Origin: Tubulanus polymorphus
Taxonomy: Eukaryota > Animalia > Nemertea
Direction of reading: 5' to 3'
Length of the DNA stretch: 64,000 bases
NCBI RefSeq assembly: GCF_964204645.1
Contig: NC_134032.1
Location: 4,488,175-4,552,174 of the forward strand
The translations under genes and the position numbers were made by a program. Positions 4,074 to 58,352 of the stretch are shown here, piece after piece. Below the pieces are notes generated by a model. That model ran no database searches. It was not told where the DNA came from and saw only the letters and a list, made by a program, of their open reading frames with translations. Positions within the stretch are counted from its first letter, which is position 1. The number at the start of each line of letters is the position of its first letter.

Positions 4074-4453
4074 CAATTGGTCGCTCCACTTCGCTACCGC
4101 TCCGCTCCGCGACCAATTGATTTATTTACAATACACAAATTCATATAATCAATATATTCAAATAATAATAATTATTCTATTATTCAACTGAAATACACAC
4201 GGTTATGAAAATATATTATAGTTTTAAATTACTTTTAATATTTGTTTTTAATGAACTCGACCATTCAACCTTTGATATGAAAGCCCATTACCCCTATTAC
4301 TCTTAAAATATTCATGTAAATGAATAACATTTAAATTGACAGATTATTCAATATAAAAGTATATATTTACAACATTATTTCAATATTCATATTTGTGTGA
4401 GTTAGATTTTTAAACATTAAAATTGTTAGTAAAGTGTGATTGAAATAATACAT
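4074..4453 (+). repeat. Left terminal inverted repeat with terminal hairpin
   Basis: Reverse complement of 21361-21738 with about 6 substitutions; stem CAATTGGTCGC 4074-4084 / GCGACCAATTG 4109-4119. Confidence 0.95.
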
Positions 4454-4479
4454 GATATAAATCATTGAACTTCTAAAAT

Positions 4480-4510
4480 CAATTTTAATAAAAAATTTGA
4501 TATTAAAATG
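4480..4510 (+). promoter_or_regulatory. Putative promoter (replication-gene class, TAAAATG)
   Basis: CAATTTTAATAAAAAATTTGATATTAAAATG, almost identical to 8629-8659 before the next gene. Confidence 0.5.
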
Positions 4511-7500
4511 GAAGCAAATAAGTACTACTGTTCAACATGTAATATCAATATAGAAAAATCCCAAAAAGCAAGACACGATAAAACTAAAACACATTTAGAG
4601 GATAAATTGAAACTAGAATATAAAGATGATATATTAGAATCTAAATTAGATGAATTAAAGAATGAAAAAGAAACATACAAATGTGATACATGTAATCAAT
4701 CATTCAGTGATAAAAGATATTATAATGAACATTTAAAATCTAAAAGTCATATTAGAAATAAGAATAATGATATTTTAGGTGAAGATTATTTTGATAATGA
4801 TAACGATAAGAAACATAAGACAATTAAAAGAATAAGAAATAAATTAAACAATAAAAGACCGTATATGGAAGATGTAAGAAAATATATTAATGTATTGGAT
4901 AATAAAAAAGATATTGAGATAACCGAAGCATTTAAAAGTGATATTGGCCCAGCAGCTAACGAGTTTAAATTTCATGAAGGAAAAACATTAGAAGAAAATA
5001 AAAAACATTTAGAAAATATGAAAGAAATAATAAAAATAATTACAGATGTTGAATACCCTAAAATAAGTATATCAGTTAAAGTTAAATTCATAAAATCTGA
5101 AGGTAAACCAATATATAATATAAATTCTCATTCACAACATATTATTTCAAAACAACATATAGATGATAAATAAGATAAATGTTATAATGAAGTAAAAACT
5201 AAAATAGAAGAGAAATATTTTGAAGGATCTGGTTTAATATTTGATGAAATAATATTTATGACTTTACATGTTTATAACACAAAATATAATAATTTAACTA
5301 AATCAAAACCAATTGATGAAAAGAATGTATCATATTATAAAGAACCAGATATTGAAGCATCGAGTTATATTAAACGACCATTTAAAACTAATGCTGTAAT
5401 AAATGTACAAAATTTGGATGATAAATGTTTTCTATGGACAATTGTAAGTTGCTTACATCCAACAGAAGATATTACACATAGTTTTAGATTAACTCATTAT
5501 AAACCATTTGAAAATAATTATAAGATAGATAAGTATCCTGTTAGAATTAAAAACATCCCAAAAATAGAAAGAGATAATAATATAAAGATAAATGTATTTG
5601 ATTTAATCAAATTACCAAATACAAAAGGTAACAATATAAAAAATTATACATTAGAACCTTTATACCTATCAAAAGATTATGATTCAAACGATGTTATAGA
5701 TATACTATATTATGAGAATCATTATATGTGGATTAAACAAATCGATTTATTTTTTAAATCAGAAAATGATCATCATAAAATATATCTATGTAGAAAATGT
5801 TTACATAGATTCAGTAATGAAAGTACATTATTAAATCATAAACAATTATGTGAAAATCATGATTATTGTAAATTAGTTTTACCAAATGAAAAAGATAAAA
5901 TATTAGAATTCAAAAAATATGATTACAAAAATAAAGCACCATTTGTTATATATGGAGATTTTGAATCATTAAATAAAGAACTAACTGATCAAGATAGAAA
6001 AGAAATATATTATAAAAGAAAGAAATTAAATTCTAATGAAAATGATTTTTCAGATGAACCACCAAAAACAAATACTATTAAAAAGATTCATCAATCAGCT
6101 GCAGCTTTCGGGTTATATATTAAATCTGATTATCCAGAACTAATTGAAAGTGAATATTATCATTATAGAAATGAAAATGTTATCAATCATTTTTGTGACT
6201 TATTAATTGAATATGAAATAAGATTTAGTAAATTATTGAATACAAATATAGAAATTATAATGACAGAAGAAGATAAAGAAGAATTTGCGTTTGCAGATAA
6301 ATGTTATTATTGTGAAAAGATATTTAATTATAAAGATAAAAAAGTAAGAGACCATGATCATTTGAATGGAAAGTTTAGAGGCGCTGCACATGAGAATTGT
6401 AACTTACAAGCTAAGAAAATTAACTTTGTACCAGTTATATTTCATAATCTATCAGGATATGATGCACATTTATTCATCAAACAGTTATGCCATAAAATAG
6501 AAGAAATTAATAATGAAATAGAAAGATTAAATTCAAATAGATCAAAAGATAAAATACCAACTTATAAATTTAGAATGTTAGCTAAAACATCTGAGAATTA
6601 TATATCATTCCAATTTGGTTGCCTAAGATTTATAGATTCATATAAATTTTTAAATAGTTCATTAGATAACTTATCAAAATCATTAGTTGATGATGAATTA
6701 AAAATATTAAAGCAACACTACCCAAATAATGATGATTTTCAATTGATAAGATATAAAGGCGCAATTCCATATTCATTTTATAAATCACATAATGATTTCA
6801 ATATAACTGAATTATTGAAAGAACAATTCTATGATGAATTATAAAATGAATATGTTAAAGATGAAGTATATAATAGAACATTGAATATTTGGAATCATTT
6901 CAAAATAGAAAATCATGGACAATTAGTAGATATATATATTTAAAATCAGATGTATTATTATTATCGGATATATTTGAAAGGTTTAGAGATGTAAACCTAA
7001 AATATTTTAACATTGATCCTTGTCATTGTTATTCTAGTCCAGGTTTAACATGGGATTGTGGATTAAAATTCACAGATATAAAAATGGATTTGTTAACAAA
7101 TATAGATCAATTATTATTATTTGAAAAATCTATAAGAGGAGGAGTTTCAGGTGTATTAGGCGATAGATATTTCAATGTAAATGATAATCCTGGATATAAG
7201 TTATTATATATAGATGCAAATAATTTGTTTGGTTGGGCAATGATGGAACCACAACCTTATGGAGTATTTGAATTAACTGAAGTTTTACAGAATGAAAATA
7301 ATGATAAATTTGATTGGAAGAAAAGAATTCTAGATATCGCAGATGATTCAGATACTGGTTACTTCTTTGTTGTAGATTTAGAATATCCTGAACATATTAA
7401 ATTTAAATCTAGAAATCTAGCTTACTGTCCCGAACATAAAACTGTAACTCATGAAGAATTATCAAATTATCAAAAAAGAATTAAACCCGAAAATCATATT

Positions 7501-8627
7501 CATACAGATAAGTTAATGGTAACTCAAGAAGATAAATATAATTATGTAGTACATTATAGAATGTTAAAGTTTTATCTAAAACAAGGAATGGTTCTAAAAA
7601 AAGTACATAGATATATTTCATTTAGTCAATCTAAGTGGTTAGAAAAATATATAGATTTTAACACCAAACAGAGAACTGAAGCTAAAACTGATTTCGAGAA
7701 AGATTTCTTCAAGTTAATGAATAATGCATTTTATGGTAAGACTTGTGAAAATATTAGAAATAGAAATGATATTGAGTTAATTAGTAATGGTAAAGATTTA
7801 GACATTTACAATCATATCCTAAGTTCATTGGCAACAGAATATTTGATGAAAATTTAGCCGCAGTTAAGATGAGAAGAACATCAATGAAATTTAATAAACC
7901 AATGTTGGCGCTTCAGTTTTAGAATTATCAAAATTACTAATGTATGAATTCTATTATAATGTATTACAACCACTTTTTGGAGAAAAACATATAGAAATAT
8001 TATATTTTGATACCGACAGTTACATATTAAAGATAAAAACTGATAACATAACAGATGATTTAAAAACATTAAAACATCATTTTGATTTTAGTAACTATCC
8101 TATGAGAATCATTATATGTGGATTAAACAAATCGATTTATTTTTTAAATCAGAAAATGATCATCATAAAATATATCTATGTAGAAAATGAATCATGAATT
8201 GTTTAGCAATGATAATAAAAAAGTTCCAGGGAAGTTTAAGGATGAATTAGGTGGTGAAGAAATGATAGAGTTCATAGGTATTAGATCTAAAATGTATTCA
8301 TATAAAACTAAAGAACATGAAGCTAAAAAGTTAAAAGGAATAACCAAAAGTGTAGTAGAAAAGAATATTCATTTCAAAGATTACATCAATTGTATATTCA
8401 ATGAAGAAGTTAGAAAACATAAGATGAGATGTTTAAGATCTGAAGATCATGAAATGTTTATTGAAGAAATTGAAAAGATAAGTCTAAACCCATTTGATGA
8501 TAAAAGATATATTTTAGATGATGGAATTCATACAGTTGCTTATGGTTGCAATTTAGATGAATACTTAAAATTTAAAAGAGAAGAAACAAAAGAGAATGAG
8601 ATTATGAAAAGAATTCTAACGTGTTAA
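4508..8627 (+). pseudogene. polB: Protein-primed family B DNA polymerase with N-terminal C2H2 zinc fingers and an endonuclease VII-like domain; broken into 5 ORFs
   Basis: YGDFES (ExoI), FHNLSGYDAH (ExoII), VRDHDHLNGKFRGAAHENCN (EndoVII), YIDANNLFGWAM (motif A), KLMNNAFYGKT (motif B), YFDTDS (motif C); stops at 5173 and 6844, frameshifts near 6930, 7800-7910 and 8190. Confidence 0.95.
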
Positions 8628-12594: not shown

Positions 12595-12617
12595 TTTTAA
12601 TTTTTTTTATTTTGTAA

Positions 12618-14053: not shown

Positions 14054-14093
14054 CCATGATAAAAAATAAATAATTAATTTTTTTGTTAAATAA

Positions 14094-15341
14094 ATGAGTG
14101 GGAGTTATATCAATCCTTCTAAGAATCATAGAATATCTAATGCTATTAAAGCAGAAAGATCACATCATATAATTACTCATAACCCTTCTCATATTAATCC
14201 CGATGAAACTTTATATGTTAGAATTCCTAAATTAACACAAAATACTTTTTACGTTCCAAATAGTATTTATTTATCAGCCGATATAAAAGTAATTGGTAAT
14301 GATAATAATTATGTTGTTGATAATGTTGGGAGATATTTGATTAAAAAATTAACTATAAAGATTGGTCCAGAAACAGTTTTCTCATTAGATGATTATAATT
14401 TATTTATGCATTATAAAGATTTATGGTTAACTAAAGAAAATAGAAATAATATGATATTTCAAGGAATCCAATCAGAAAACCAAAATAAATTAAGATCAGG
14501 AGCTAATGACGCAATAGTAACTCGTACCGCAGATAATTTGATAAAAAAGATTTATGGAAGCAAATATAAAATTCCATAAGACTTTGAATTGATAAATAAT
14601 AATGCACCTTTATATAAATACGCAATTCAAGAAGACGTTATATTCGAACTAACATTTGCTCCTGTTAATGAAATTGTATTATCTAGCGTTAATAAAGATA
14701 TGAGTTATAAATTATCGAATATATGTTTAGAATATGATACAGTAACTGATGAAAATATTTCAAGTATAATTCAAACTCAATACAATCAAAGATTTTCATT
14801 ATTATATGATTATATTGATAAATTTAAAACTGTAACTATTAATGCAAATGATGAAATTATTAATGAGAATATTAACTTCCCAAGGAGATCTATTAAAGGC
14901 ATATAAATATTTTTTACCATTGCAACATATACTAATGGCGCAATAAATGTTGATAATTATTATAATCCTGAAATAACAAAAGTAGAAATAACAATCGAAG
15001 GAATAGCAAATAAAATATTTTGTCAAGGAATGAGAATGATAGATCAATGGCCGGAAATTAGAAAACATTTTATGAATGAAAAAGTGAAATCATCTGAAAA
15101 TTGTAACATTAATCAAATTGATTATTATACCGGCAATAAATATGCATTATGGTTAGATTTTAGAACAACAGAGGATAATTCATTACATGGTTCTGGAAAA
15201 AAACTACAGAACACTGAAGATGGAATACAATTATTCATGACAAAGAAAAAAGGAAGTCTAAATTTCAAAATGCACATTTATATTATATCTGACGCGCAAT
15301 TAAATATTGTAAATTCACAATTAGATAGTGTTATGTATTAA
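14094..15341 (+). pseudogene. Major capsid protein (double jelly-roll), broken into 3 ORFs
   Basis: ~415-aa beta-rich protein (NPSHINPDETLYVRIP, IKKLTIKIG, YALWLDFR) in the Polinton capsid position; near-identical copy at 22174-23418. Confidence 0.8.
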
Positions 15342-15373
15342 AATTTTAACTTTAATAAATATTTATTATATAA

Positions 15374-16512: not shown

Positions 16513-17124
16513 TTATTTTATAAATTTATATTCATATGGAAATTGTAGTCTCAGTAATAATTTTGAACCTTTATTATTCTTTAATTTATTCATATATTCG
16601 TCATGTAATTCAGTAGGTATAATTTGATTTTTTTCCAATGATTGTTGCATAGATTTTTTATCTTTGTTATAAAATAAAACTAGAAATCTTATATTCTCCC
16701 TAAAGTCTTTAACAATTGAATTATATTTTTGATTTAAAACCCATGTTGTTATCCCAAAATGTCTTCCAGAGAAAGCTAAATAACATAACTCACTTTCTCT
16801 CACTTTTGAATCATGTAAATTTGCGCAATCATCTACAATGAATAATGTATTTGATCCTTTATAAGTATCAATTGCCATTTTAATACAATTATCTAAATTT
16901 TCTTTTACTGTTTTAGGATTTAATATAATAAACTTTTTTATCTTAACTATATCTCTATTATATGTTTTATTCATTTCATAAGTAGGACAAAATAATATTA
17001 TGTTATCAAAATGATTCTTATAAATAGTTTCTAACAAATCTAATATGAAATGTGTTTTACCACAGTTTGTTACTCCAGTAACTAACATATTATGCGGTTC
17101 AAATATAAATAAATCTTTATTCAT
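16513..17124 (-). CDS. A32-like (FtsK/HerA) genome packaging ATPase
   Basis: Walker A GVTNCGKT, Walker B LFIVDD, SGRHFGIT, R-E-N motif; intact. Confidence 0.92.
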   Translation of the reverse strand: MNKDLFIFEPHNMLVTGVTNCGKTHFILDLLETIYKNHFDNIILFCPTYEMNKTYNRDIVKIKKFIILNPKTVKENLDNCIKMAIDTYKGSNTLFIVDDCANLHDSKVRESELCYLAFSGRHFGITTWVLNQKYNSIVKDFRENIRFLVLFYNKDKKSMQQSLEKNQIIPTELHDEYMNKLKNNKGSKLLLRLQFPYEYKFIK

Positions 17125-18208
17125 TTATTCTTTTAATTTTACTAGATTAAATCCATTCATTAAATTTATTATCGTATCCTTTATATTTCACCAAAGAATA
17201 CTTTTTTCCTTTAAGAGTTTTTGTTTTCAATACTTTTTCTATTTTGTATTCTATTTCATCTGGATTTGGTACAAGTGATAATTCTTGTTCATAGAACTAA
17301 CCTAATATTTCTTCATCTTTTAGATCTTCTAGTTTATAAACAAAAGGTTTAGTTAATATTATCTTTTTAATTTTAAATATTTCTTCAGTAAAATTAGGGT
17401 TATAACCTTTATAAAAGGTTTTTCTATATTTAGATATTCTAACGTGTTGTCCTATTTTAAATTTAGGTTCTCCGAAATCATGTGTAACAAACGCTCCGTA
17501 TAAATTATTCCTAACTATTTCTGAATTATCTTCTTTTCTAGCTTGTATAGGTTTCATATTTATAGAACTATGTTTAGAATTATTTTAACCTTTCACTAAA
17601 TCATCTAACACATCGATATATTTATATGTTTCATTAGCAGTAAAGTATTTCAATATTCTAGTTTTCAATGTTTTATTAAATCTTTCTATAATAGATGCTT
17701 TTTTATCTGAATGTGTTGAAAAATATTTTACATCGTTATCATATAATAGTTTTTTAAAATGTTTGTTATAAAATTCCTTACCTTCATCAAATTGTATCTT
17801 ATCTGGAAAAGCTTCTTTAAATATAGATTTAAAAGCATTTGTAACTTCTATACCAGTTTTATTTTTGATTGGAATTGACCATGCGTATCTACTGAATATG
17901 TCTATGACATTTAATATCCAGAAATATCCTTTGTTGTGTTCTTCTAAGTTCTTCATCTCAATTAAATCAGCTTGCCATTGTTGATCGATATATGAAACCA
18001 TAACTTTTCTTGTTAAATAAGTTTTATCCATTTTCTTGTGAATTTTATATGTTGGTTGATTTTGTAACCATGATTTTAATTCACTATATTTTATACCACC
18101 ATTTTCTTTATCAGATTTAATTTTATCCCATAATTCTGAAACGTTAGAATATGATACTTCACTCTCTGGGTTATAATATAAATCTCTTAAATATTGTTCT
18201 TTTTTCAT
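17121..18208 (-). pseudogene. int: Retroviral-like (rve) integrase with C-terminal chromodomain
   Basis: WQADLIEM, IDIFSRYAW, QFDEGKEF, ERFNKTLK; C-terminal EYKIEKVL..LVKYKGY..NEW; stops at 17585 and 17297. Confidence 0.93.
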
Positions 18209-18214
18209 CTTATT

Positions 18215-21360: not shown

Positions 21361-21738
21361 ATGCATTATTTCAATCACACTTTACTAACACTTTTAATGT
21401 TTAAAAATCTAACTCACACAAGTATGAATATTGAAATAATGTTGTAAATATATACTTTTATATTGAATAATCTGTCAATTTAAATGTTATTCATTTACAT
21501 GAATATTTTAAGAGTAATAGGGGTAATGGGCTTTCATATCAAAGGTTGAATGGTCGAGTTCATTAAAAACAATTATTAAAAGTAATTTAAAACTATAATA
21601 TATTTTCATAACCGTGTGTATTTCAGTTGAATAATAGATTAATTATTATTATTTGAATATATTGATTATATGAATTTGTGTATTGTAAATAAATCAATTG
21701 GTCGAGGAGCGGAGCGGTAGCGACCAATTGATTTATTT
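21361..21738 (-). repeat. Right terminal inverted repeat with terminal hairpin
   Basis: Mirror of 4074-4453; 18-bp perfect stem 21687-21704 / 21721-21738. Confidence 0.95.
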
Positions 21739-22143: not shown

Positions 22144-22173
22144 TTATATATCCTTAATTTTAACTTAATATTT

Positions 22174-23418
22174 CTAATATTGAATAATTTCTAATTGAGA
22201 ATTCATAATATTTAATTGCGCGTCAGATATAATATAAATTTGCATTTTGAAATTTAAGCTTCCTTTTTTCTTTTTCATGAATAATTGGATCCCATCTTTA
22301 GTATTCTGCAGCTTTTTCCCAGAGCCATGTAATAAGTTATCCTCTGTTGTTCTAAAATCTAACCATAATGCATATTTATTGCCGGTATGATAATCAATTT
22401 GATTAATATTACAATTTTCAGATGGTTTTATTTTTTCATTCATAAAATGTTTTCTAATTTCTGGCCACTGATCTATCATTCTCATTCCCTTACAAAATAT
22501 TTTATTTGCTATACCTTCGATAGTTATTTCTACTTTTGTTGTTTCAGGATTATAATAATTATCAACATTTATTGCACCATTAGAATATGTTGCAATGGTA
22601 AAAAATATTAATATACCTTTAATAGATCTTCTTGGGAATTTGATATTCTCAATAATTATTTCATCATTTGCATTAATAGTTACAGTTTTAAATTTATCAA
22701 TGTAATCATATAATAATGAAAATCCTTGATTGTATTGAGTTTGAATTATGCTTGAAATATTTTCATCAGTTACTGTATCATATTCTAAACATATATTCGA
22801 TAATCTATAACCCATATCTTTTATTACACTTGATAATACAATTTCATTAACAGGAGCAAATGTTATCTCGAATATAATACCTTCTTGAATTGCGTATTCA
22901 TATAAAGGTGCATTATTATTTATCAATTCAAAATCTAATGGAATTTTATATTTGCTTCCATAAATCTTTTTGATCAAATTATCTGCAGTACGAGTTACTA
23001 TTGCGTCATTAGCTCCTGATCTTAATTTATTTTGATTTTCTGATTGCACGCCTTGGAAAATCATATTATTTCTATTTTCTTTTGTTAACCATAAATCTTA
23101 ATAATGCATAAATAAATTATAATCATCTAATGAAAAAATTGTTTTTGGACCAATCTTTATAGTTAATTTTTTAATCAAATATCCAACATTATCAACAACA
23201 TAATTTTTATCATGGCCAGTTACTTTTATATCAGCTGACAATTAAATACTATTTGGAACATAAAAAGTATTTTGATTTAATCTCGGGATTCTAACATATA
23301 AAGTTTCATCAGGATTGATATTAGAAGGATTATGAGTATTTATATGATGAGATCTCTCTGCTTTAATAGCATTAGATATTCTAGAATTCTTAGAAGGATT
23401 TATATAACTCCCACTCAT
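22174..23418 (-). pseudogene. Major capsid protein, second copy
   Basis: Highly similar to 14094-15341; 296-aa ORF plus a broken 5' part. Confidence 0.85.
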
Positions 23419-23449
23419 TTATTTAACAAAAAAATTAATTATTTATTTT

Positions 23450-24872
23450 TTATCATATTTACTAACCCAAAAATTAGGCACTTAAAACTGTAATTAAAAA
23501 TAAAATAATATGTTCAGCAGCAAAGTTAAGAATATTCCGAGCAGATTTCAATATAAAACAAACAATCGATGCAATAACTCCAGGTAAAGCTGCGGCAGAC
23601 TTTTTAGATAGTTCCCATAAATATTTTGCTAATCTTTTTAAACCATCCTTAACTTTATCATCCTTATCTTAACTTTATTGGGAGTAGGTGTAGATTGTAA
23701 TGAATTTGATATTGCTAAACCAATTGTTGTGAATACCATAGTTACAGCTGTTAGAATTGAAAGAATTGTTATTCCTTCTTACTTAAATAATAATTTTATT
23801 CTATCTTTTAATGATATTTCAGAATTTGGTTTTATCAACAAATCTTTAAAAATAACTTTTAATCTAGTTAATATTATAATTATATGATTTTTTTAATAAT
23901 TTAATTTCTTCTTTTTGAAATTCTATGTTATATTCCAAATCATTTTTTCTTTTTCTAAATATGCATTTCTTTTTTTAAATTCAATTTCTTCAATAACTTT
24001 ATTATCTCTATCTAATTTTAGTTGTTCTATTTCTTTAATTTTATCAGTTCTATCTTTTTCCAAAGTTCTAATTTTAAAATCTCTTATACTTTTATCATGC
24101 GCAATTTTATCAGATGCAAGTCTTATACTAATAATTTCTCTAATTGCTTTATCAGAAAATAAATTTAAATCTTCTAATTCTTGATCTGTTGCATCAAGTA
24201 ACCCATTTGGTAAAAGTTTTTCAATTGGTACTTTATTCGATTTAAGTTTACTAGTTTTGGAAGTTATATTCTGTTCAGAAGTTCTTTCTGGTTCTAAATT
24301 ATCATTGATTCAAATAAGTCATTAATTCTTTGTTTAAATACTCTTTTATTTCGATTTACTTCTTCTTGTGTAACATTTTCTATTTCATTACTATTACTTA
24401 TTCTTTTAATTCTAGATGGTTCTAAATTACTCAACGTTGATTCTGCTAATATTTTGTTTAGATTTTTATAAGTGATATTAATATAATAATCATCTTTCAA
24501 ATGATATTAATATTCACCATCTAAAGATTTTAATTCTTGTACTAAAAGTCTAGCACCTCTATCATTGATATTATATTCAGATCTTTCAAATATAGGTTTA
24601 AAATTATAAATATATTCATTATATTCTAAATTTTGTTTTACTCAATCTGAATTTTCATTTTCAGGATTTATTCTCGATTTAGTTCTTCTATCAGATTCAT
24701 CTGTTGATGGGTCTTTAGAACCACTATCTGCTAAATTAGAATTATATGCTGATCCATCATCATTATCAATATTAGTTTCATTAAAATCAGGTTGTGGTTC
24801 ATCAGGTATAAATCCGTCATTATTATTTCCCATTTCTCCCATTTCATAAGCTTCTCCACCTTCTACATCCAT
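23450..24872 (-). pseudogene. Coiled-coil/TM protein, second copy
   Basis: Homologous to 12618-14053 (KSAAALPG, KPNSEISLKDRIKLLFK). Confidence 0.75.
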
Positions 24873-24894
24873 TTATATCTTATAAAAATTAAAA

Positions 24895-25740
24895 TTGAAA
24901 ATATAATATTCCTCCGATTACAATTCCTATACAAGTCATAGCTTATTTAGCATTTTCATGGGATTTATTATCATTATCAGTTTTAAATATGCCATGTTGA
25001 ATATTATCAGTTTTTATATCACCGTGTGGGTGCCGTACGTAGTATTGTAATCTTTTATTTTAGAATCATTATTTAATTTAATATTCTTAGTTTTAGTTTC
25101 TGTTGATTGAATATGTTTTTTAATGTTTTCACCTTCCATTAATTTTGGAGCAGTAATTATCTTTTTATTTATATCATTCAACCCAAATTAATTATTTATT
25201 GTTGCAAGTTTAATCAGATTATCGTAACCAGTTATATTTGCCATCTTCAATACTAAATCATTAGAAATAATCAATAGATTAGGGCCTATACAATAGTTTA
25301 ATCTAATATGTGATTTAAATAATTTTGATATCTTACTATGTTTTCTGGAATCGATCTATTTTTATCATTATGAATGGAATCTTCAAATAATCCTTTGAAT
25401 TGTTTCTGCGCATCGAATGAAGTGTTTTCATTTCCAACTATTGGTGATCTTGTTTCAACTTGTGCACCTAAAATACATATCAAATAAGTTCTAATTGATT
25501 GATTTATTCTTTGTATGCCTGATTTTGTAAAACCTTCACTATTTTCTAAAATGAAATTAATCCAACCATCATTATTTTGTTGTTGTTTGATATAAATATA
25601 ATATTTTGGTATTTCATTCCATTTAAACGTTTTTGAGTTAATATTTTTTATTGTTTTTCTATATTCTTTAGTATAAGGGACAGCAAAACCTCCGATTGGA
25701 AATGGTGAATTATTCATTGCATCCATAGCTTTCTCTACTC
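24895..25740 (-). pseudogene. Conserved Polinton gene, 3' part (copy 2)
   Basis: WINFILENSEGFTKSGIQRINQSIRTYLICILGAQVETRS. Confidence 0.8.
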
Positions 25741-25766
25741 TCTCTATATATAAAGTAAAATCTAAT

Positions 25767-26845
25767 ATGAAATATTGGCAGAATCAATTACATTTTGCTG
25801 TCTATTGTGCTGCATGTTGTGATATAAGTTGGAATGATCATTTAAATAACTTAGATAAAAATTTGAATTATTCTGATTTAAAATTAATTCATACAGTATT
25901 TAGATTTCACACATATTATTTTCAAATCAGAATAATATTAAATGAATTAGAATGTACTTTACCCGGATCAAAATATTTTAAAGAATTGGATAATAGTATT
26001 AATCTATCTAAGTTTTTATAATATGTAATGAATTTAATATAAATATTAATTCCGATTTTAGAGCGCATGGTAAATTGCAAGGTATTGGTGAACAGTATGA
26101 AATAAAAAGAATTGATTATATGCATAGAATTGGAGCTTATCATAATTATAATATTGATAATAATAATTGTTGGATTAATTTTATATTAGAAAATAGTGAA
26201 GGTTTTACAAAATCAGGCATACAAAGAATAAATCAATCAATTAGAACTTATTTAATTTGTATTTTAGGTGCGCAAGTTGAAACAAGATCATCAATACTTG
26301 GAAATGATAACACTTCGTTTGAAACACAGAAACAATTCAAAGTTTTATTTAAAGATTACATTCATAATGATAAAAATAGATCGATTTCAGAAAATATAGT
26401 CAGGTACCAAAATTATTTAGAAAAATCACATATTAGATTAAATTATTGTATAGGCCCTAATCTACTAATTATTTCTAATGATTTAGTATTAAAGATGGGA
26501 AATATAATTGGGTATAATAATTTAATTAAGACTGCAACAATAAATTATTCATTTGGATTGAATGATATAAATAAAAAGATAATTACTGCTCCAAAATTAA
26601 TGGAAGGTGAAAACATAAAAAAAACATATTCAATCAACAGAAACTAAAACTAAGAATATTAAATCAAATAATGATTCTAAAATAAAAGATTACAATACTA
26701 AAGAAAATGGTGCCGCACGGTGATATAAAAACTGATAATATTCAACATGACATAATTAAAACTGATAATGATAATAAATCCCATGAAAATGCTAAATTAG
26801 CTATTACTTGTATAGAAATTGTAATCGGAGGAATATTATATTTTA
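25767..26845 (+). pseudogene. Conserved Polinton gene (copy 3), inverted relative to copy 2
   Basis: KYWQNQLHFAVYCA..WINFILENSEG..; frameshifts. Confidence 0.8.
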
Positions 26846-26869
26846 ATTTTTAATTTTTTTATTATGTAA

Positions 26870-27188
26870 ATGGCAGAAGGTAGAGAAAAGTATGAAATGG
26901 AAAACATGGGCAATAATAATGAAGCATATATTGATGACGATTATAATGATTCTGAAACTAATATTGATAATGATGATGAAACAGCGTATAATTCTAATTT
27001 AGCAGATAGTGGTTCTAAAGCCCCATCAACAGATGAATTTGATAGAAGAACTAAATCGAAAATAAATCCTGAAAATGAAAATCCAGATTTAGTAAAACAA
27101 AATTTAGAATATAATGAATATATTTATAATTTCAAATCTATATTTGAAAGATCTGGGTATAATATCAATGATAGAGGTGCTAGACTTT
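26870..27188 (+). pseudogene. 5' fragment of the coiled-coil gene, fused by rearrangement to PolB
   Basis: MAEG..AYNSNLADSGSK matches 24540-24872; the sequence switches to PolB at ~27188. Confidence 0.7.
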
Positions 27189-27636
27189 AATGACATAATG
27201 GGAAAAATACTAGATTTGACAAGAGATGTTGAATATCCAAAAATTAGTATCTCTGGGAAAGTAAGTTTTATAAAGTCAGAAGATAAAATGGATTATAATA
27301 TTCAAACACTCTCTGAAGAAATAATTTCAAAAACACAAATAAAAGAGAAGTTAGAAAAAATATTTAATGAATTTAAACGTCATATTGAAGAGAGATATTT
27401 TGAGGGTTCTGGTTTAACATTGAATGAAATTATATTTTTAGTTTTAAATGTTTATAATACAAAAACGAATAAAACATCAAAATGTAAAACAATGTTCAAA
27501 AATGATTCAAACTTTACAACAGAAAAGGATATTAAAGCATCAAGTTATATCAAATTACCATTTACAACAAAAACAGTAATAAATGTTCAAAATGAAGATA
27601 ATAAATGTTTTCTATGGTCAATTATAAGTTGCTTAC

Positions 27637-28202
27637 TGTAAGAACTGTCTTCTTCTTGTTGTCCCTTTCTCATCTGATCAACACTAAGTGCAAGTTTAAT
27701 CTATCATGAATTTTATTGATGACTTCTTTTCTTTTTGCTGCAGCTTACAAAATATATTTCTATCCAGAGAGTTTGGTCAGAACTCTTCTCTAAAGTGTAA
27801 AATTTTGGCCTATTTATACTAATCTATCTTCCTGGTATCCATGTTATGATTCAGTACTTCCCAGAAAACAATTATTTTTAATAGACAACGTCCGGACGGG
27901 GAAAACCAAAGTTCGATGGGGAAAACCAAACTTCGATGGGGAAAACCAATATTCAATGGGGAAAACCAGAACAATTATTTTTTGATAGACAACCCTACCC
28001 GGAAAAACCCGAGAGTAAAGTTACAATTTTCTGAGAGAACTAATTTTTGTGAGCATGATTTATGATAGGGAAGTTGATAATATTTAAGAGCTTCATATTT
28101 TTGTGAACATGATTTATGATAGGGCCCTAAGATATTTAATTATTTAATGAATTTATACCAGGATGATAGATTTAGTAATGTGACGATGACCGCGTCGTCA
28201 CA
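27637..28202 (-). mobile_element. Solo LTR (566 bp) with 5-bp TSD
   Basis: TGT...ACA ends; CTTAC duplicated at 27632-27636 and 28203-28207; removing it restores PolB CLHPT; AATAAA on the minus strand. Confidence 0.85.
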
Positions 28203-30762
28203 CTTACACCCAACATAAGATATTACGCATAGTTTTACAATAACGTATTACCGGAAATATGAAACATTATATAAAATTGATCAATATCCAGTAACTATAA
28301 AAGTGATTCCAAAAGTAGAAAAAGTTAATAATTTAAAAATAAATGTATTCGAATTAATACAATTACCAAAGACAAAAGGTGAAAATATTAGAGATTATAC
28401 GTTAGAAGCTTTATATTTAACAGAATATTATGATGATGAAAATGCTATAGATTTGTTATATTACAAAAAGAGATGAAAATGAACATTAAACGTGGATAAA
28501 ACAAATTGATTTATTCTTTAGAACAACAGAAAGTGATCACCATCGTAAAATTTATCTATGTAGAAAATGTTTATCTAAATTTATGACTGAGAATGCGTTA
28601 CTAAAACATAAAGAATAATGTGATTTTTGTAAATTAATAATGCCAACAGAAAAAGATTATAAATTGAAATTTACTAATCATAAATTTAAAAATATTGTTC
28701 CATTTGTAATTTATGGGGATTTTGAATTGTTGAATAAAGAATTAACTGATCAAGATAGAAAAGAAATATTTAACAAAAAGCAATTTCTAAAATCAATGGA
28801 TAAAGGAAATGAATTAAATGAAGATATAATTCAAGATCCACCGATTATAAACACAATTAAAAAAGTTCATTAAAGAGCTGCTGCTTATGGAATTTACATA
28901 AAAACAAATCATCCCGAATGATATGAAAGTCAATATATTTCTTTTAGAGGTGAAGATGTAGTAAATGAATTTTGTAATAAAATAATTGAATTAGAAAATG
29001 ATTTTGCAAACTAAAATAAAAGAATAGTTATGACAAAAGATGAAATTGATTTTAATTATGCAACTCATTGTTGTTACTGTGAAAAACGTTTTTATTCATT
29101 TAATAAAAAAGTTAGAGATCATGATCATTTAAATTCAAAATACCGCGGATCTGCTCATGAAGATTGTAATTTACAAGCTAAGAAAGTTAATTTCGTACCA
29201 ATATTATTTCATAATTTATCAGGCTATGATACCCATCTATTTATAAATGAATTATCAGGAAAATTGGGTGCAATTAATCAAGAAATAGAAGAATATAATG
29301 CTATGAATGGTACAAATGTAAGAAAATATGATTTTAAACTATTAGCTAAAACATCTGAAAATTATATTTCATTTCAATTTGGTTGCATTAGATTTTTAGA
29401 TTCTTATAGATTTCTTGCAAGTTCATTAGATAATTTAGCAAAAAGTTTAGTTGATAATGATTTTGTTATAACTCAATATTATTATCCAAATGAACAAGAT
29501 TTATTTTGAGATATAAAGGTGCAATTCCTTATTCATTTAATAAAACACACAATGATTTTAATGTAAGAGAATTATTAAAAGATCAATTTTATGATCAATT
29601 AAAAGAGGAGTATGTGAAAGATGAAGTGTTTAATAGAACATTAAATATTTGGAATCACTTTAAGATAGAAAATCATGGTGAATTAGTAGATTAATACTTA
29701 AAATCAGATGTTATGATATTGGCTGACATACTGAAAAATTTAGAGAAGTTAATTTGAATCATTTTAATGATGATCCCTGCTATTGCTACTCTAGTCCTGG
29801 TTTAACCTGGCAATGTGGTTTAAAATATACAAATGTAGAATTGGATTTATTAAAAGAACCAGACATGGTTTTAATTGAAAAATCAATTAGAGGTGGAATT
29901 AGTGGTGTTATGGGAGATAGACATTTTAAAGCAAATGATGAATGTAAATTATTATATTTCGACGCCAATAATTTATATGGTTGGGCAATGATGCAACCTC
30001 AACCATACAAAATTTTATATTAACAGAAGTTTAAAATGATGATAAAACTGATTGGGAAAGTGCAATTACGAGTTTAATAGATGAAGCACCAATTGGTGAT
30101 TTCTTTGTAGTTGATTTGGAATATCCTGATAACATAAAGTTAAAAACAAGAAACTTACCTTATTGCCCAGAACATTTAACCGAACATGATAGTTATTTAT
30201 TTAAGTAAATACCAGAAGAAAAAAAAACCGAAAGAACTTGATTTTACAGAAAAAGTGATATTAACACAAAATAATAAATATAATTATACTGTTCATTATA
30301 GAATGTTAATGTTAATTTTATCTAAAACAAGGAATGAAATTAAAGAAAGTACATAGATATATTGAATTTAATCAATCGAAGTGGTTAGAAAAATATATAG
30401 ATTTTAATACTCAACAGAGAACCATATCAAAAACAGATTTTGAAAAAGATTTCTTCAAATTAATGAACAATAGTTTTTATGGTAAAACATGTGAAAATAT
30501 TAGAAATAGAAATGATATTGAATTAGTAAATAATTTTGAACGATTAAGACATTTACAATCAAGTCCTAGACATTTAGGAAATAAAAGATTTGAAGATTAT
30601 TTAACCGCGGTAAAATTAAAAAGAACGTCAATGAAATTTAATAAACCTATATTCATTTGTTCAACTGTTTTAGAAGTATCAAAATTTTTAATGTATGATT
30701 TTTATTATAATGTTTCACAACCACTGTTTGGGGAAAAACATATAGAAATCTTACATTTTGAT

Positions 30763-30795
30763 TCTGTATCAGCTGACACCCCAATATTATTAAAC
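30763..30795 (+). other. Putative intein N-terminal block A at the PolB pol-c site (truncated)
   Basis: HFD|SVSADTPILL replaces YFD|TDS of the other copy. Confidence 0.6.
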
Positions 30796-31589
30796 GATAC
30801 CCTAAAGTCTGAATATGTACAGCATGTTCCGCTGTCCTCGGGAAGGGTCGCAATAAAAGGAAGACCCTGGCAAGTTCAAGTACATAAACCTAGTTGAATT
30901 ATACATGAGCCTCTTTTCGTCCATTGAGACAATAGGTCTATTACTTTCACTAGTCGTCCTTTATTGCTGAATTGCACTTTATACACATATTTGAATTTTC
31001 AAGGGGAAAATTAGAAATATTTCGGGTGGTTTCTTGTTACATGATTATTACCAGCACAGTCACATGGAATTGGGAATACTAAAACTTTGTTCTTGCCACC
31101 ATGGGAAGTTGAATATTGAATGTATTACAATTTGTCAATATATAATGATACATATGCATCACGCAAAGTTGTAGCTCATGACATGTCCTGTAATTGTGAT
31201 AAGTTTCATGGTCCATGTATCGAATATTGGTATTGTTGAGTGATTAATATGTGTCACTAATCTTTCTGACTGTGACTTCGTAATTTTGTGAAGATTGTGT
31301 AAATTGAATATAATCATTTTCATTCCAAAACGCAATAAAAATTCTAGAGATACTGTTTAACTGTTTTGTTTTGTTGTTCTTGTAGATGGAATCTTGTACC
31401 ATGTATGCTACTTAGTTCCCCAGCCAGTTAACAATCACAACGAAAAGAAAAGAATAGATTAGAGTGCAATTTCATATGATTAATATTTGAATATGAAAAC
31501 TTTCATTTTACATTTTACTTCTGTTTTACAAGTACAAGCATAAATTCTCTTCTGCAACAGTAGTCGTTAATAATAAGGAAATTTTAAAT

Positions 31590-31812
31590 TTATTCTGCAG
31601 GTACAATCGGATTCGATGCATTACATAAAGCACAAGCTATCCGTACTATCTTATCTAGTGTGGTATAGTGTCCTGAGTTTTGTAAAAACGAGATAGGTAT
31701 TGTGCTCTCTAAAATTGTGAACCTTTGTCGGATCATTCCTATTACACGCTCTACGTGAATCCTTACATTAGCTATATTCCTGGTTCTCTCCACCTCCTCT
31801 GGATCAAGTTGA
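31590..31812 (-). pseudogene. PIF/Harbinger-ISL2EU DDE transposase, C-terminal fragment
   Basis: QLDPEEVERTRNIANVRIHVERVIG..LDKIVRIACALCN. Confidence 0.85.
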
Positions 31813-31860
31813 GTTTTAAAAAAGTCAGAAAAAAATGACGTCAGAGTACGTCCGGTTTGA

Positions 31861-34800
31861 AGAGCTCAGACCACTATTCCAAAATCTTCTATATCCTATA
31901 GTAAAAACACGAAATTCGAGAGTTTAGTTCATATATAAGCGCGTAAATTCAGGGGAAATCCTGCTTATGGCTCATAGGCCAGCATCTTAGCTACGCATTG
32001 AAGTGGTTTTCGCCCCACGTACCCAACCTAACTTTTGAAATAATCAAACCTTTAGAAAGGAGGAGTATCCCAGTACAGGTATGCCAGTACATCCGAGCCA
32101 AATATCTAAGGGAATCCCCAACCGTGTTTGGTACCCTTACTCCAAGCAAAAAAAGTCCAGGGAATCCCTTATTTCATCATCGATCTGTCTCTCAGGATCA
32201 ATGGATTTCATACATATAACCGAAATTCGTTACCTATCCCATTTGCAGAAATTATGGCAACATTTATGGGGGACCTCTTCTTCACTCTAGGTACTATTTT
32301 TCGGGTCCGGCCCTACGCATCTTCGAGCTACTAACCTAATTGTGGTCTGATGCCTGACTAGTACCCAAACTTAAGAATAGCATTAGTTTATGTACAGTTT
32401 TAGAAAGAGTGGAGACACCCTAGTTATACAACGCAATACAATAGCTCTCGGCCAATTACACATGGAAATACATGCTAATGCACAAATCGCGCGTATGCGA
32501 CAAAATCCAAGTTTTCTATCAATATCATCTAAGTCAAACATTCATTTCAAAATATGAATTAAACAATTATACAACATTTTCTGAATACTTGATAGATTTT
32601 TTTCACTGATGGATATAAATATATGGCTATGGATAAAAATCAGAAACACAATCTTTAAGCATTTTTTGAAAAAAATGCCATTTTCATCATCGAATGGGCT
32701 GAAACCTTTAGATTTGGCGTTTTCTTGCGCTGAAAGCCTAATTCGAATGCACCCTACTGCGTCCACAGGCCTTCGGCCGGGACGAATTTTATATACCAAG
32801 CGTAGTTGTCACCAGTACTAGTTAGGAAAAATATCACAACTGGCCTCTGACAATGTCCTTTCGGTTGCCATGGTTTCAACGAAAATATGCATTTCCCCTA
32901 GCCCTTAAATTATATATAAGCGCGTAAATTCAGGGGAAATCCTGCTTATGGCTCATAGGCCAGCAACTTAGCAACGCATTGAAGTGGTTTTCGCCCCACG
33001 TACCCAACCTAACTTTTGAAATAATCAAACCTTTAGAAAGGAGGGGTATCCCAGTACAGGTATGCCAGTACATCCGAGCCAAATATGTAAGGGAATCCCC
33101 CACCGTGTTTGGTACCCTTACTCTAAGCAAAAAAAGTCCAGGGAATCCCTTATTTCATCATCAATCTGTCTCTCAGGATCAATGGATTTCATACATATAA
33201 CCGAAATTCGTTACCTATCCCATTTGCTGAAATTATGGCAACATTTATGGGGGACCTCTTCTTCACTCTAGGTACTATTTTTGGGGTCCGGCCGTACGCA
33301 TCTTCGAGCTACTAACCTAATTGTGAGCTCAGACCACTATTCCAAAATCTTCTATATCCTATAGTAAAAACAAGAAATTCGAGAGTTTAGTTCATATATA
33401 AGCGCGTAAATTCAGGGGAAATCCTGCTTATGGCTCATAGGCCAGCATCTTAGCTACGCATTGAAGTGGTTTTCGCCCCACATACCCAACCTAACTTTTG
33501 AAATAATCAAACCTTTAGAAAGGAGGGGTATCCCAGTACAGGTATGCCAGTACATCCGAGCCAAATATCTAAGGGAATCCCCCACCGTGTTTGGTACCCT
33601 TACTCCAAGCAAAAAAAGTCCAGGGAATCCCTTATTTCATCATCAATCTGTCTCTCAGGATCAATGGATTTCATACATATAACCGAAATTCGTAACCTAT
33701 CCCATTTGCAGAAATTATGGCAACATTTATGGGGGACCTCTTCTTCACTCTAGGTACTATTTTTGGGGTCCGGCCCTACGCATCTTCGAGCTACTAACCT
33801 AATTGTGGTCTGATGCCTGACTAGTACCCAAACTTAAGAATAGCATTAGTTTTTGTACAGTTTTAGAAAGAGTGGAGACACCCTAGTTATACAACGCAAT
33901 ACAATAGCTCTCGGCCAATTACACATGGAAATACATGCTAATGCACAAATCGCGCGTATGCGACAAAATCCAAGTTTTCTATCAATATCATCTAAGTCAA
34001 ACATTCATTTCAAAATATGAATAAAACAATTATACAACATTTTCTGAATAGTTGATAAATTTTTTTCACTGATGGATATAAATATATGGCTATGGATAAA
34101 AATCAGAAACACAATCTTTAAGCATTTTTTGAAAAAAATGCCATTTTCATCATCGAATGGGCTGAAACCTTTAGATTTGGCGTTTTCTTGCGCTGAAGGC
34201 CTAATTCGAATGCACCCTACTGCGTCCACAGGCCTTCGGCCGGGACGAATTTTATATACCAAGCCTAGTTGTCACCAGTACTAGTTAGGAAAAATATCAC
34301 AACTGGCCTCTGACAATGTCCTTTCGGTTGCCATGGTTTCAACGAAAATATGCATTTCCCCTACCCCTTAAATTCCTGACAGTATCTGGCACCAAAAAGT
34401 CAGCCAAACTAGATAACTTAATCAAAGAAAGCTGAATTAATGTGATTATTCTGCATGGGCAAGGATGGCCTTTATGAAATAAATTTATGAGCCTAGACCG
34501 AGCCTCCTACGAGAAAATATCTTACGGTTCATGCCTAAAAATTGACCGAAATCTGCGATTCTAGCCTTCTACAAGCAAAAATATTACCAAATCCTACCAT
34601 GGAACTGATTAAAATCAGCGAATTAGGTCTCAATGAATGCCTCAAGACGACTTATATGTGCAAAAGATGTATAAGATAAAAATTATTTGTGAAATTTCAT
34701 CAAAACTTCAAAATTTGTTATTTTGGCTGTATTGGCTGTCAGAGCTCAGACCACTATTCCAAAATCTTCTATATCCTATAGTAAAAACAAGAAATTCGAG

Positions 34801-35255
34801 AGTTTAGTTCATATATAAGCGCGTAAATTCAGGGGAAATCCTGCTTATGGCTCATAGGCCAGCATCTTAGCTACGCATTGAAGTGGTTTTCGCCCCACAT
34901 ACCCAACCTAACTTTTGAAATAATCAAACCTTTAAAAAGGAGGGGTATCCCAGTACAGGTATGCCAGTACATCCGAGCCAAATATCTAAGGGAATCCCCC
35001 ACCGTGTTTGGTACCCTTACTCCAAGCAAAAAAAGTCCAGGGAATCCCTTATTTCATCATCAATCTGTCTCTCAGGATCAATGGATTTCATACATATAAC
35101 CGAAATTCGTAACCTATCCCATTTGCAGAAATTATGGCAACATTTATGGGGGACCTCTTCTTCACTCTAGGTACTATTTTTGGGGTCCGGCCCTACGCAT
35201 CTTCGAGCTACTAACCTAATTGTGGTCTGATGCCTTGTGGTCTGATGCCGCCTGA
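31861..35255. repeat. Large tandem repeat, ~1416-bp unit (modules A+B+C), about 2.5 copies with an internal rearrangement
   Basis: Module A begins at 31861, ~32912 (5'-truncated), 33325 and 34741; B at 32344-32910 and 33808-34372; C at 34373-34740; very high identity. Confidence 0.9.
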
Positions 35256-35521: not shown

Positions 35522-35869
35522 CAGCAGTCAACTCCAGCCGCAGCACTATTATGCTTTTTTGCCTGTGCATTTTTTGTTCTTGATTTTTTATATCCGCCCG
35601 AGTACAGCTTGCCTGGGCTTTGTAAGTCTCCAGGCACCTACATGATGGTGCAGGCCATTCACAATGCCTATGCAGAGAAGCCTGGCCTCTATATAGTTGA
35701 TCGCCCTAGTGCGTATGCCCCTGATAACCAGACGTTCTGGTCGTACCTTGATAATAAACAGATTGGCCAGGCCGAGCTGTCTCGATATACAAAGGGAATT
35801 CCCACATATATACCGATAAATTTATTAGACTGCCTTAGAGTTATTCATGATGGCCCTGTCAAAATTTGA
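35522..35869 (+). pseudogene. Probably 5'-truncated viral ORF at the left junction
   Basis: Frame stays open upstream of 35609 into host-like sequence with no ATG; overlaps the RPB2 start by 23 nt. Confidence 0.4.
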
Positions 35870-38800
35870 TGGTGAGATGCCATCGTCTTTTTTAAATTAT
35901 TTATATCTGGAAATGCTGCGCTACACGGGGGGTATTAAATTCTCGATGACGTATGAGCCCTTCCACTTGTTTATCAGGCGGGGCATTTCAGAGGTCCTGA
36001 CGAACCGCATGCGGCCCCAGTACATCTCAGGGATCTGGCGAGGCGAAGGAACCTTAGTCAACTATAGATTGCGCAAGCCTGAGCTAAATGGAAAGCCCGT
36101 GCTCCCGAGCAGCATTATTAACAGCAATGGCTCTTACCTGGCCACCGTCGAGTGCGATCTCAAAATCGATCTCTATAAGGCAGGGGAGCTTGTGTACTCG
36201 CAGGCGCTGCCTATGGATTTTTTTAAGATCCCTGTTCCCGTCGGCTCGATCGCCTGCAATTTGATTGATTGCGATCCCAACGATGATCTCACCACCGAGC
36301 AGTACAGGGAGCTCATCTACAAGGCCATGCTTGAATATCCGCAAGAAATCGTCGGCCAAGACACGGCCCCACTGATCTTGGGCGGCAATATTTACACCAT
36401 GCTGACGATCAAAGACATGACGACAAATCACCCATTTTATAACTTTAAGCATGCGCCCAAAGACTCGACAGCGCCCTACCACATGACTGGCAATATGCTC
36501 TGCGAATCGACGACCTCGCACGCCATGAACCATGCATACTCGATTCAGCCCAATGGCGATGGCATGGAGTTTATTTGGCGCATTCATTCGCCGCCCATTG
36601 ACAGCATTTCTATGCCCTTTTCGATGATGTTTAAGCTGCAGGACCTGTTCTCTGAGCGGCTCATGACAGCCAAGATCATATCTTATGTGCGCCACGAGAT
36701 CGTCCCCAAGGCGCGCACGCTCCTGCTTCAGCTGTTTGAGTCCGATAAGACGCGCCAAATTGAGACCTTACACGGCGCTATGCAGTATCTATACAAGCTC
36801 TGCGACGAAACAGACACGCTCGTCAAACTGAAAAACAACTACGAGCAAGAGATGACGTCGCTTAAGATTTATAGAGTTTTTTATGCGCGCCTGTTTCCGC
36901 AAGTGGACAAAACGCACTCAAATGAGCAGGGCATCGAGCTCGCTGGCAAACTCATCGGCGAGGCCATCCAAAATTACTTGACTTATAAGCAGCCCGATCC
37001 CCTCAAACATAAAAAAATTGTAAACACCCAAATTAGGGCCTCTTACCAAGCCAGCTGCATGAGGACGCCCAATGAGTACAGCAAAAAGAACTTGACCTCG
37101 GCGCTGCATCCCAAAGTTTCGCGCGATATCAAAAAGTTCCTGAAATATTGTATAGAAAGCCTCATTATAAAAGAAGACTTCAACGTGGTCAACATGCCCA
37201 AACTCATCAAAAATCTAAAAGAGCTGCCCATCACAAAAGCCATTTCAGATGTGGAAATGAAGCGCCGAAACACAAAGGGGCAGGTCATATCAGAGGCCAC
37301 AAAGCGCCACCTAGTGGGCTCGCCTGGCCAAATGGGGCGGCAGGGGCGCGTAAACTCGATTAATACATATCAGGTATACAGCTCCGAAAACACCAACGTG
37401 CATTTTCGCTATAACTCTAAGGACTCGTTCCCATTTCAGTGCCCCCTGTCCACCCCTGAGGGCGAGCCGGGCAAAAATGCCATCCCCACGCCCACCTCCA
37501 TTTCATCGATCCCGACCATTCCCAAGTCAGAGGTCTTGCGCATTTTGCTAGAGAGCCTGCCCCTTTGCAATCACATCAACTGCTGCAATATCTTCTTTGA
37601 GCAGACCCTCTTGGGGCGCTATTGCGATCCGCGCAGGATTATGGACTTGCTGTTTGGGCTCAGGCGCACTAACAAGGACATGCGCGCGATGTCGATGCAC
37701 TACAATTCCGAACAGAACAACACTAGCATCTTTTACGCAGAGGGCACGCCGATGGTGCCCCTCATTCGCGTGGTGTCCAACGAGGCCGAAGTGGCGTACA
37801 AAAATCGCCCCCAAGACTTTTGCCAGAGCCTGGCGATTACGCCCGAAGATGTCTATGAGCTCGCGCGCGGCAATACAACCATGGAGCACTTTCTGAGCGC
37901 AGGGCTCATCGATTTTGTGTCGCCCAATGAGATCACGCACCTGCATCTTTGCGGCGACTATCGAGAATTTTGGCTAAATAGGCATAACATCGAAAAGGGC
38001 TATGATTATATGTGCATGCCTGAGCAGGCCCTTGACTCTATTATGGCCTCCAATCCCAATATCGACTCGGCGCCCTGCCAGCGAGGCACATTTGCCTGGT
38101 CGCAATCGAAGGGCTCTTCGGAAATTGTCAATGTGGCCGAACTTCGCCAAAAGCGCAGCGCAGGGCTCTTGTCCGCCAATGTGCCCTTCGGCCTGACGGT
38201 GTCTTCGCTCTTAAACTCCACGTATTATCTGATGCCGCTCACGGCACTGACTGTGCATGAGTATTCGCAGGAAGATGGCATCACTCTAAATTCGCATGCT
38301 GTGTCTCGCGATTTTGGGCTAAACCTTTGCTTGAGTAAATACACCAAGAAATTGGATAATAATGAAAAGCTATGCGCAAGAAAAGATTTGCAGTCGCCGC
38401 CGCTGTGGCTCGATGCGAATGGGCTGCCGGCCGTGGGGACGCGCCTTAAAAATGAGACGATCTGCTTTTATACCATGATCACCACTGAGCGCACTGGCAA
38501 AACTGTCCATACCTTTGCCTTTAATATCTCGAGCATCGTGACCTCGGCGACTTTGTCAGTGCACAATAACAACAAGGGCATCATTTGCATTGAATTTATA
38601 TATAATCAGCCCCTGGACATGTCTTCGAAGCTGTCGCAGATTACGGGCAATAAATCGGTTGTCTCGAAGCTCGTCAGCCCCATTGATTTGCCCAAGACCC
38701 CTGACGGCGTGGCGCCCACTGTGATTCAGCAGCCCATTATGACCCCCAAGCGCGCGATCTCCGATGAGTTGGTGGCCCTGAATTCATATTATACGATAGA

Positions 38801-58270: not shown

Positions 58271-58352
58271 TTTTTGTCTCAAAATCTATAGTGGGCCCCT
58301 GATCAAATGTGCATAGCATGCCGGCGCGGGGCAGAGGGGGCAAAAAAAGCAG

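Follow-up and report, generated by a model that had tools for sequence, protein, structure and literature searches.

Polinton elements and neighbouring DNA

The window, which is the whole stretch of 64,000 nt from Tubulanus polymorphus that was analysed, contains two Polinton elements followed by DNA of a different character. Element 1 is assigned to the Polintons because it combines a protein-primed DNA polymerase (pPolB, copy 1) and a retroviral-type integrase with terminal inverted repeats, a packaging ATPase and a capsid gene, the last of which is matched below the profile cut-off (Table 1). No target-site duplication is seen at the BLAST-defined repeat ends, and none of the nine ORFs scanned in the Polinton region matches a protease, which in Polintons is of the adenain type. 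The second Polinton is rearranged (22140–27188) and carries an inverted 1-kb duplication (24545–25576 and 26159–27188, 89% identity) between its capsid block and its polymerase. Its capsid piece at 22177–23097 gives no Pfam match, and no integrase is seen beside its polymerase (copy 2). A third pPolB fragment, N-terminal part only, lies at 1342–2138 on the minus strand.

Table 1. Features of the window, with the evidence on which each assignment is based.
Feature	Position	Strand	Evidence
Left terminal inverted repeat, Polinton element 1	4091..4453		363 nt, 98% to 21361-21723
pPolB copy 1, broken, empty intein site 8011|8012	4469..8627	+	tblastn and junction comparison
Major capsid protein gene, fragmented, element 1	14094..15341	+	PF16903 E 0.002, below cut-off; repeat of 22140-25675
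A32-type packaging ATPase of element 1	16516..17124	-	PF04665 E 3e-12
Retroviral-type integrase of element 1	17588..18214	-	PF00665 E 6e-11
Right terminal inverted repeat, Polinton element 1	21361..21723		Pairs with 4091-4453
Capsid gene piece of second, rearranged Polinton, adjoining pPolB copy 2	22177..23097	-	84% DNA identity to 11834-15377
pPolB copy 2, pseudogene, several frames and stops	27162..30762	+	tblastn of P0272 and P0319 on the window
Last open N-extein piece of pPolB copy 2, ends at motif C	30316..30762	+	PF03175 E 4e-4, below cut-off
Highly probable N-terminal remnant of pol-c intein (block A, 10 codons + 2 nt)	30763..30794	+	Junction match, decamer score, P0122 continuation, reads
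5-nt overlap, truncation junction	30790..30794		Loose read ends and contig pieces
DDE_Tnp_4 transposase fragment in unrelated DNA, 0.8 kb past truncation	31593..31865	-	PF13359 E 9e-18, above cut-off

Beyond copy 2, the interval 31862–35235 holds a MITE-like unit of ~494 bp with 13-nt inverted ends, in three copies plus partials at 98–99% identity. The remainder (35400–64000) is gene-dense, with ~50% GC. One of its ORFs (35829–39362) resembles the second subunit of RNA polymerase (PF00562, E 4e-12), and the best PDB chains for this ORF are 8xx4_B, 8xx5_B, 8y0e_B and 8q3b_B (E 3e-10 to 4e-9), which we take to be asfarvirus polymerase. An A32 ATPase lies at 39325–40434, and a 2.6-kb tandem duplication with 99.5% identity and 68-bp repeats occupies 53403–58591 of this high-GC, viral-type region. 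Judged by its genes, 35400–64000 is likely a divergent endogenous Nucleocytoviricota-like virus adjoining the Polintons.

A probable intein start at motif C of pPolB copy 2

Copies 1 and 2 share 73% identity over 2.6 kb in BLASTN. The alignment ends exactly at 30762/8011, as anticipated by the original prediction that copy 2 tracks copy 1 up to EIL(Y/H)FD and then carries SVSADTPILL in place of TDS. The ORF at 30316–30897 (plus strand) reads EILHFD|SVSADTPILL, compared with EILYFD|TDSYILK in copy 1 at 8011|8012, so that the insert splits motif C of the polymerase after its first Asp and before the Thr. The N-extein piece at 30316–30762 is 89% identical to the intein-free proteins P0002 and P0272. 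Ten codons and two nucleotides of the insert survive (30763–30794), in agreement with the predicted ~10 residues, and the frame stays open for ~34 further codons in unrelated DNA. A host repeat directly after 30762, which together with the lack of any copy ending HN|TDS was named beforehand as telling against an intein, is not present; unrelated host-side DNA begins after 30794. No C-extein follows the insert within the window, and Pfam/TIGR profile scans of the window ORF give no intein match. The insert also matches 23229–23253, a short chance similarity within the capsid gene.

The decamer was scored on a matrix of 73 distinct pol-c intein starts, all from outside the Polintons, namely from giant-virus-type and archaeal polymerases. 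SVSADTPILL, which has Ser at position 1 inside the block A motif, reaches 30.3 bits, compared with 7.6 bits for the runner-up among the 127,936 decamers of the window in six frames, and none of 300,000 random decamers scores as high; the matrix starts were found with Polinton-intein queries and picked by motif, which biases the score towards the Polinton-intein family, although the gap is very wide. When the 62 junction residues are compared with all 50% representatives, the best match is P0122 (80% identity over 60 residues). P0122 reads EILYFD and then SVTADTPILI, continuing into an intein N-domain (TIGR01445, E 0.009, below cut-off), which bears out the reading of the decamer as a pol-c intein start.

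Three public sequencing runs labelled as the same species (X1, X2 and X3, the last as raw reads amounting to ~12% of the run) were mapped to the junction. The X3 depth is ~486 before the site, 163 at 30770–74, 136 at 30790–94 and 9 at 30795–99, with loose read ends at 30762 (153), 30766 (94) and 30794 (105, agreement 0.86). About a third of the polymerase copies follow the insert to 30794 and then continue together into DNA that is absent from the window. The same step at the site appears in X1 contigs (~14% of the pre-site depth past it), and no X2 contig crosses 30770–30789. One X1 contig matches the stretch fully and may be where it derives from, and no X3 read matches it at 99% or more. 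In contigs of X1 and X2, the downstream DNA from 30790 is joined to other sequence. Since the insert-bearing copies match to 30794 and the downstream DNA starts at 30790, the window copy was cut at a junction with a 5-nt overlap. In Tubulanus, insert-bearing copies are thus known to 30794 from reads, and complete inteins are known from relatives.

The summed contig depth of the polymerase (30400–30771) relative to the flank, which is not a copy number, is raised hundreds to a thousand-fold in X1 and ~40-fold in X3 and is not raised in X2; these differing ratios may reflect very different Polinton loads between samples.

That the decamer arose by chance where a broken polymerase gene meets unrelated host DNA has a negligible probability: the survival of ten residues only, the unrelated DNA with a transposase fragment that follows and the lack of a profile match for the window ORF would suit it, but they are set against the gap between 30.3 and 7.6 bits, the 300,000 random decamers of which none is equal, the same start in P0122 and the ~160 reads that follow the insert to 30794 compared with ~10 in the flank. 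It is highly probable that bases 30763–30794 represent the beginning of a truncated pol-c intein. Its complete relatives, which are 346–354 residues long and include a LAGLIDADG nuclease, lie within motif C of Polinton pPolB; they are predicted to splice and likely spread by homing. The window insert itself is a dead relic that can neither splice nor home.

Complete inteins in related polymerases

At the motif C site of 269 pooled proteins, 225 read TDS and five have an intein-like start, the rest being variants or fragments. The 120 listed full-length proteins closest to P0002 all lack the intein. With a profile built on three intein starts, 166 proteins are retrieved, 120 of which were listed and classified: 38 have a Polinton-type N-extein by BLAST, eight begin two residues before the intein, two (P0301 and P0320) have no extein match, and 72 are other polymerases, 69 of them with PF00136. 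We infer that these 72 are giant-virus-type polymerases because related loci include GVMAG contigs. Nearly all of these listed non-Polinton matches are PolB, and the intein trees covered inteins of the pol-c site.

Complete inteins of the above length occur in eight pPolB proteins. The original prediction had called for full copies with a Hint domain, a LAGLIDADG nuclease and an N|TDS end, and such copies are found in related protein-primed polymerases. The C-terminal junction is N|TDS in seven of the eight and N|ADS, with Ala after the intein, in P0284; the window copy has lost this end. The penultimate His that had also been expected holds for six of them, while P0319 ends in SN and P0320 in KN. 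P0286 scores above the cut-offs for PF14890, PF05204, PF14528 and TIGR01445; P0319 and P0320 fall just below those of PF14890 and TIGR01445 and above that of PF14528 (LAGLIDADG_3). Both LAGLIDADG motifs retain their acidic residue in all eight. The block B motif T-x-x-H is present in six, degenerate in P0288 and unmatched in P0285, and it is lost from the window copy. The intein part of P0122 groups with the complete P0319 (99/97). The residues before the site in the Polinton hosts are YFD, YMD, YLD, YQD or YGD.

The predicted structure of the P0319 intein (pLDDT 90.7, 28-row alignment) finds its best matches among solved nuclease-bearing inteins (7qsu, E 2e-17), and among viral models the giant-virus PolB entries match best. 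The best PDB sequence match of P0128 is NEQ068 (E 0.0014), presumably the Nanoarchaeum split pol intein. P0320 is an intact protein-primed PolB of 1603 aa that belongs to another class, with a strong PF03175 match; its N-extein has no BLAST match to P0272 or P0405, and its intein belongs to the same family, at 46–49% identity.

Many of the intein-plus proteins are fragments, and five partial proteins have no Pfam matches. A word-based search with the junction region recovers only the intein-free P0002 (one of 11 candidates). A motif scan of 3 + 40 loci finds no intein start, and the 24 loci with a motif C match all read TDS. In IMG/VR, no Polinton with an intein is found, and P0284 has no pattern match. 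Among 44 viral loci, 36 carry an intein at a GD|..N|TD-type site. A related intein start in an 898-aa viral ORF (L049:5001) follows VN instead of GD, and this ORF may encode a host protein other than a polymerase. P0284 also has matches of 28–30% to two phage records. An Atlas search with residues 980–1450 of P0286 gives a best score of 0.88, which is a lead only.

Plus and minus forms, splicing and homing

The P0286 cluster comprises 136 sequences on contigs of up to 1 Mb. Among the 13 examined of its 14 listed members (P0399, 129 aa, was left out), six contain the intein, six lack exactly residues 1042–1387, and one ends before the site. The minus forms are 94–98% identical outside the intein. 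Copy 1 and L004 likewise have an empty site. An N-extein tree of 47 rows, built without P0320 and P0322, shows five changes of intein state, and all 11 plus rows fall in one 27-row clade (97/98). Close plus/minus pairs are P0286/P0405, P0321/P0008 and P0122/P0272. Window copy 2 falls together with P0122 and P0272 (100/99), and P0123 is the partner of copy 1 (99/97); the copies therefore represent sister subfamilies and not alleles. The earlier proposal of intein-plus and intein-minus alleles in one locus therefore stands only in part: both forms coexist in the Tubulanus reads, but copies 1 and 2 are not an allelic pair. The tree does not separate gain from loss.

The complete Polinton inteins are predicted, from their sequences, to splice and to home. 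They show the features of class 1 inteins, namely an N|T end in seven of eight, a Hint fold and an in-frame insertion with precise intein-free homologues. In class 1 chemistry, Ser1 would attack, the chain would pass to the Thr that follows the intein, and the last Asn would cyclise. Splicing would restore the motif D-T-D-S, and the polymerase would be inactive until then. Because splicing would restore motif C, loss of the intein must be precise. The nuclease would cut the empty site of intein-minus Polintons, and repair would copy the intein in; the many dispersed copies of Polintons would thus provide homing targets inside one nucleus. Intact splicing residues would also speak for a continued need of these Polintons for a functional polymerase. 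The plus/minus pairs at 97–98% identity make homing among dispersed copies directly testable, by sequence and in vitro.

A different account holds that the complete inserts splice but no longer home, and that the plus/minus pattern arises by precise loss through recombination with empty copies. The confinement of every plus row to one clade, where all five changes could be losses, and the fragmentary state of many intein-plus proteins are consistent with it. However, both nuclease motifs are intact in all eight complete inteins at less than 50% identity, which is unlikely without selection for cutting, and P0320 requires a horizontal jump. We consider this account improbable and favour homing.

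Host of the intein-bearing elements

The original prediction placed the intein in an animal nuclear genome. The named organisms among the 120 listed relatives of P0002 (Mytilus, Macrosteles, Tubulanus, Pinctada and Nymphon, at 46–50% identity) are all animals, which supports that placement by inference, whereas no intein-bearing record carries an animal name. An animal host of the intein-bearing Polintons is probable.

The window and the intein-bearing clade might instead belong to a non-animal eukaryote, which would make this another protist or algal case. No host gene is identified in the window, the five animal-named proteins in the tree all lie outside the 27-row clade that holds every intein-plus row, and such PolB sequences also occur in non-animal datasets, according to part of the text of Starrett et al. 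(PMC8502044). Against a non-animal host, every named organism among the listed P0002 relatives is an animal, and the layout of capsid, ATPase and integrase is that assigned to animal adintoviruses in the same portion of that source. A host outside the animals seems rather unlikely on this evidence. Searches for relatives of the capsid piece that would link it with named animal adintoviruses found none.

Four Polinton-type polymerase fragments (P0124 and P0273–P0275) are recorded under Bartonella names on contigs of less than 1.3 kb and are probably eukaryotic contamination. One of them, P0124, is placed inside the clade containing the intein-plus rows.

Origin and direction of transfer

In each of the two intein trees, a single branch separates the Polinton inteins from all others (support 98/88 for the 31-row tree and 99/100 for the 44-row tree). 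When the tree is rooted on archaeal pol-c inteins (14 inteins extracted from 16 loci), the Polinton clade is nested two starred branches deep among 28 giant-virus-type rows and is joined to five viral rows at 95/93 by a short branch (0.059). The 44-row tree left out viral inteins of less than 320 residues, two long-branch rows and one near-duplicate, and it used no mixture model. Monophyly of the viral rows is not rejected by an AU test (p=0.175), so the nesting, the donor and the direction are not proven. The giant-virus PolB donor of the original prediction accordingly fits the nested clade, but a sister-group relationship is not rejected.

Horizontal movement as such is well supported by sequence comparison: the inteins are 44–49% identical between polymerases with only short, weak extein alignments (P0319 or P0286 versus P0320, P0350 and P0327). 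Inside the main pPolB clade, by contrast, intein identity follows extein identity (47/50% and 61/64%), which indicates that the invasion is old. In the history we propose, one crossing between giant-virus-type PolB and pPolB would have been followed by an extended period of co-descent, during which one pPolB clade repeatedly lost or regained the intein; a further jump would have led to or from another pPolB class (P0320).

A real intein without a giant-virus donor would also account for these data, either as sister groups derived from an older or unsampled source or through transfer from a Polinton to a giant virus. The AU result, which leaves the viral inteins possible as one clade, the shortness and 95/93 support of the branch to five viral inteins, and the old invasion indicated by the tracking identities all favour this reading. 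The archaeal-rooted free tree, which nests the Polinton clade among the viral rows, and the far greater diversity of the viral inteins in the sample count against it. We regard it as unlikely.

The fullest version of our interpretation, to which we give an even chance, is that an active homing LAGLIDADG intein circulates among Polintons of animal chromosomes, having crossed from a giant-virus RNA-primed PolB and jumped between two pPolB classes, with plus and minus copies within single genomes. If true, a true intein family would be resident in animal nuclear DNA and would mark past co-infection by Polintons and giant viruses.

A canonical intein in Polinton polymerases would extend inteins to a further host protein family and a further viral group, and if the hosts are animals it would place inteins in animal chromosomes. 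A gene parasite previously known from archaea and giant viruses appears to have entered elements residing in eukaryotic chromosomes, likely those of animals. Such an allele-specific intein can apparently cross between polymerase families with barely alignable flanks. The presence of the intein in Polintons also supports physical encounters between Polintons and giant viruses.

Comparison with known systems

Searches of the open-licence literature on inteins, Polintons and adintoviruses found nothing that describes a Hint-type intein from a Polinton polymerase, though an earlier mention is possible. A splicing intein in a Polinton polymerase is not described in the accessible portions of PMC12220804, PMC11071308, PMC3671162, PMC549080, PMC10710043, PMC5784728, PMC8502044, PMC11296320 and 10.1101/2023.08.22.554363, and the terms sought on this topic do not occur in PMC11071296. 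The LAGLIDADG inteins of Polinton polymerases are apparently an undescribed family.

Surveys (PMC5784728 and PMC10710043, in the available sections) record viral inteins solely from giant-virus families and most nuclear inteins from unicellular eukaryotes. Green et al., in the part available, list viral inteins in Iridoviridae, Marseilleviridae, Phycodnaviridae, Mimiviridae and unclassified viruses; because Iridoviridae are included, inteins of animal-infecting iridoviruses are already known. Adintoviruses, as presented in a portion of Starrett et al. 2021 (PMC8502044), have the pPolB, integrase, A32 ATPase, capsid and terminal inverted repeats found in the window, and the word intein has no occurrence in the main text of that paper.

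Inserts with HNH and VSR nucleases are reported in Polinton pPolB in the accessible text of Jeong et al. (10.1101/2023.08.22.554363), and Krupovic et al. 2024 (PMC11071308), in the corresponding part, suggest that pPolB nuclease inserts stem from intein invasions. The inserts of these two sources are of the HNH, VSR or GIY-YIG type with no splicing domain named in those passages, and Jeong et al. do not use the word "intein". In contrast, the Polinton inteins have a Hint domain, a LAGLIDADG nuclease, an insertion in the active site and precise empty alleles. The available text of Gallot-Lavallee et al. 2023 (PMC10710043) reports virus-like DNA polymerases that contain inteins and lie on nuclear scaffolds of algae and of a labyrinthulid; these are likewise virus-borne polymerase inteins in eukaryotic chromosomes. 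Unlike the Polinton inteins, these are tied to endogenised giant viruses in non-animals, and "Polinton" is absent from the main text.

The giant-virus PolB inteins are the closest sequences and folds to the Polinton inteins. The Mimivirus PolB intein (Ogata et al. 2005, PMC549080, in the sections available) occupies the same pol-c site, after Asp and before TDS in motif C, with the same Ser start, Asn end, following Thr and LAGLIDADG nuclease. Ogata et al. considered a crossing by homing implausible even between mimivirus and archaea. Compared with Mimivirus, the host protein of the Polinton intein is a protein-primed PolB (PF03175 type) of an integrating element, its exteins barely align to giant-virus PolB, and many plus and minus copies share one genome. 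The archaeal pol-c inteins, including NEQ068, share the site and the block A pattern with the Polinton inteins, but they are longer (386–420 aa) and form a separate clade (98/99).
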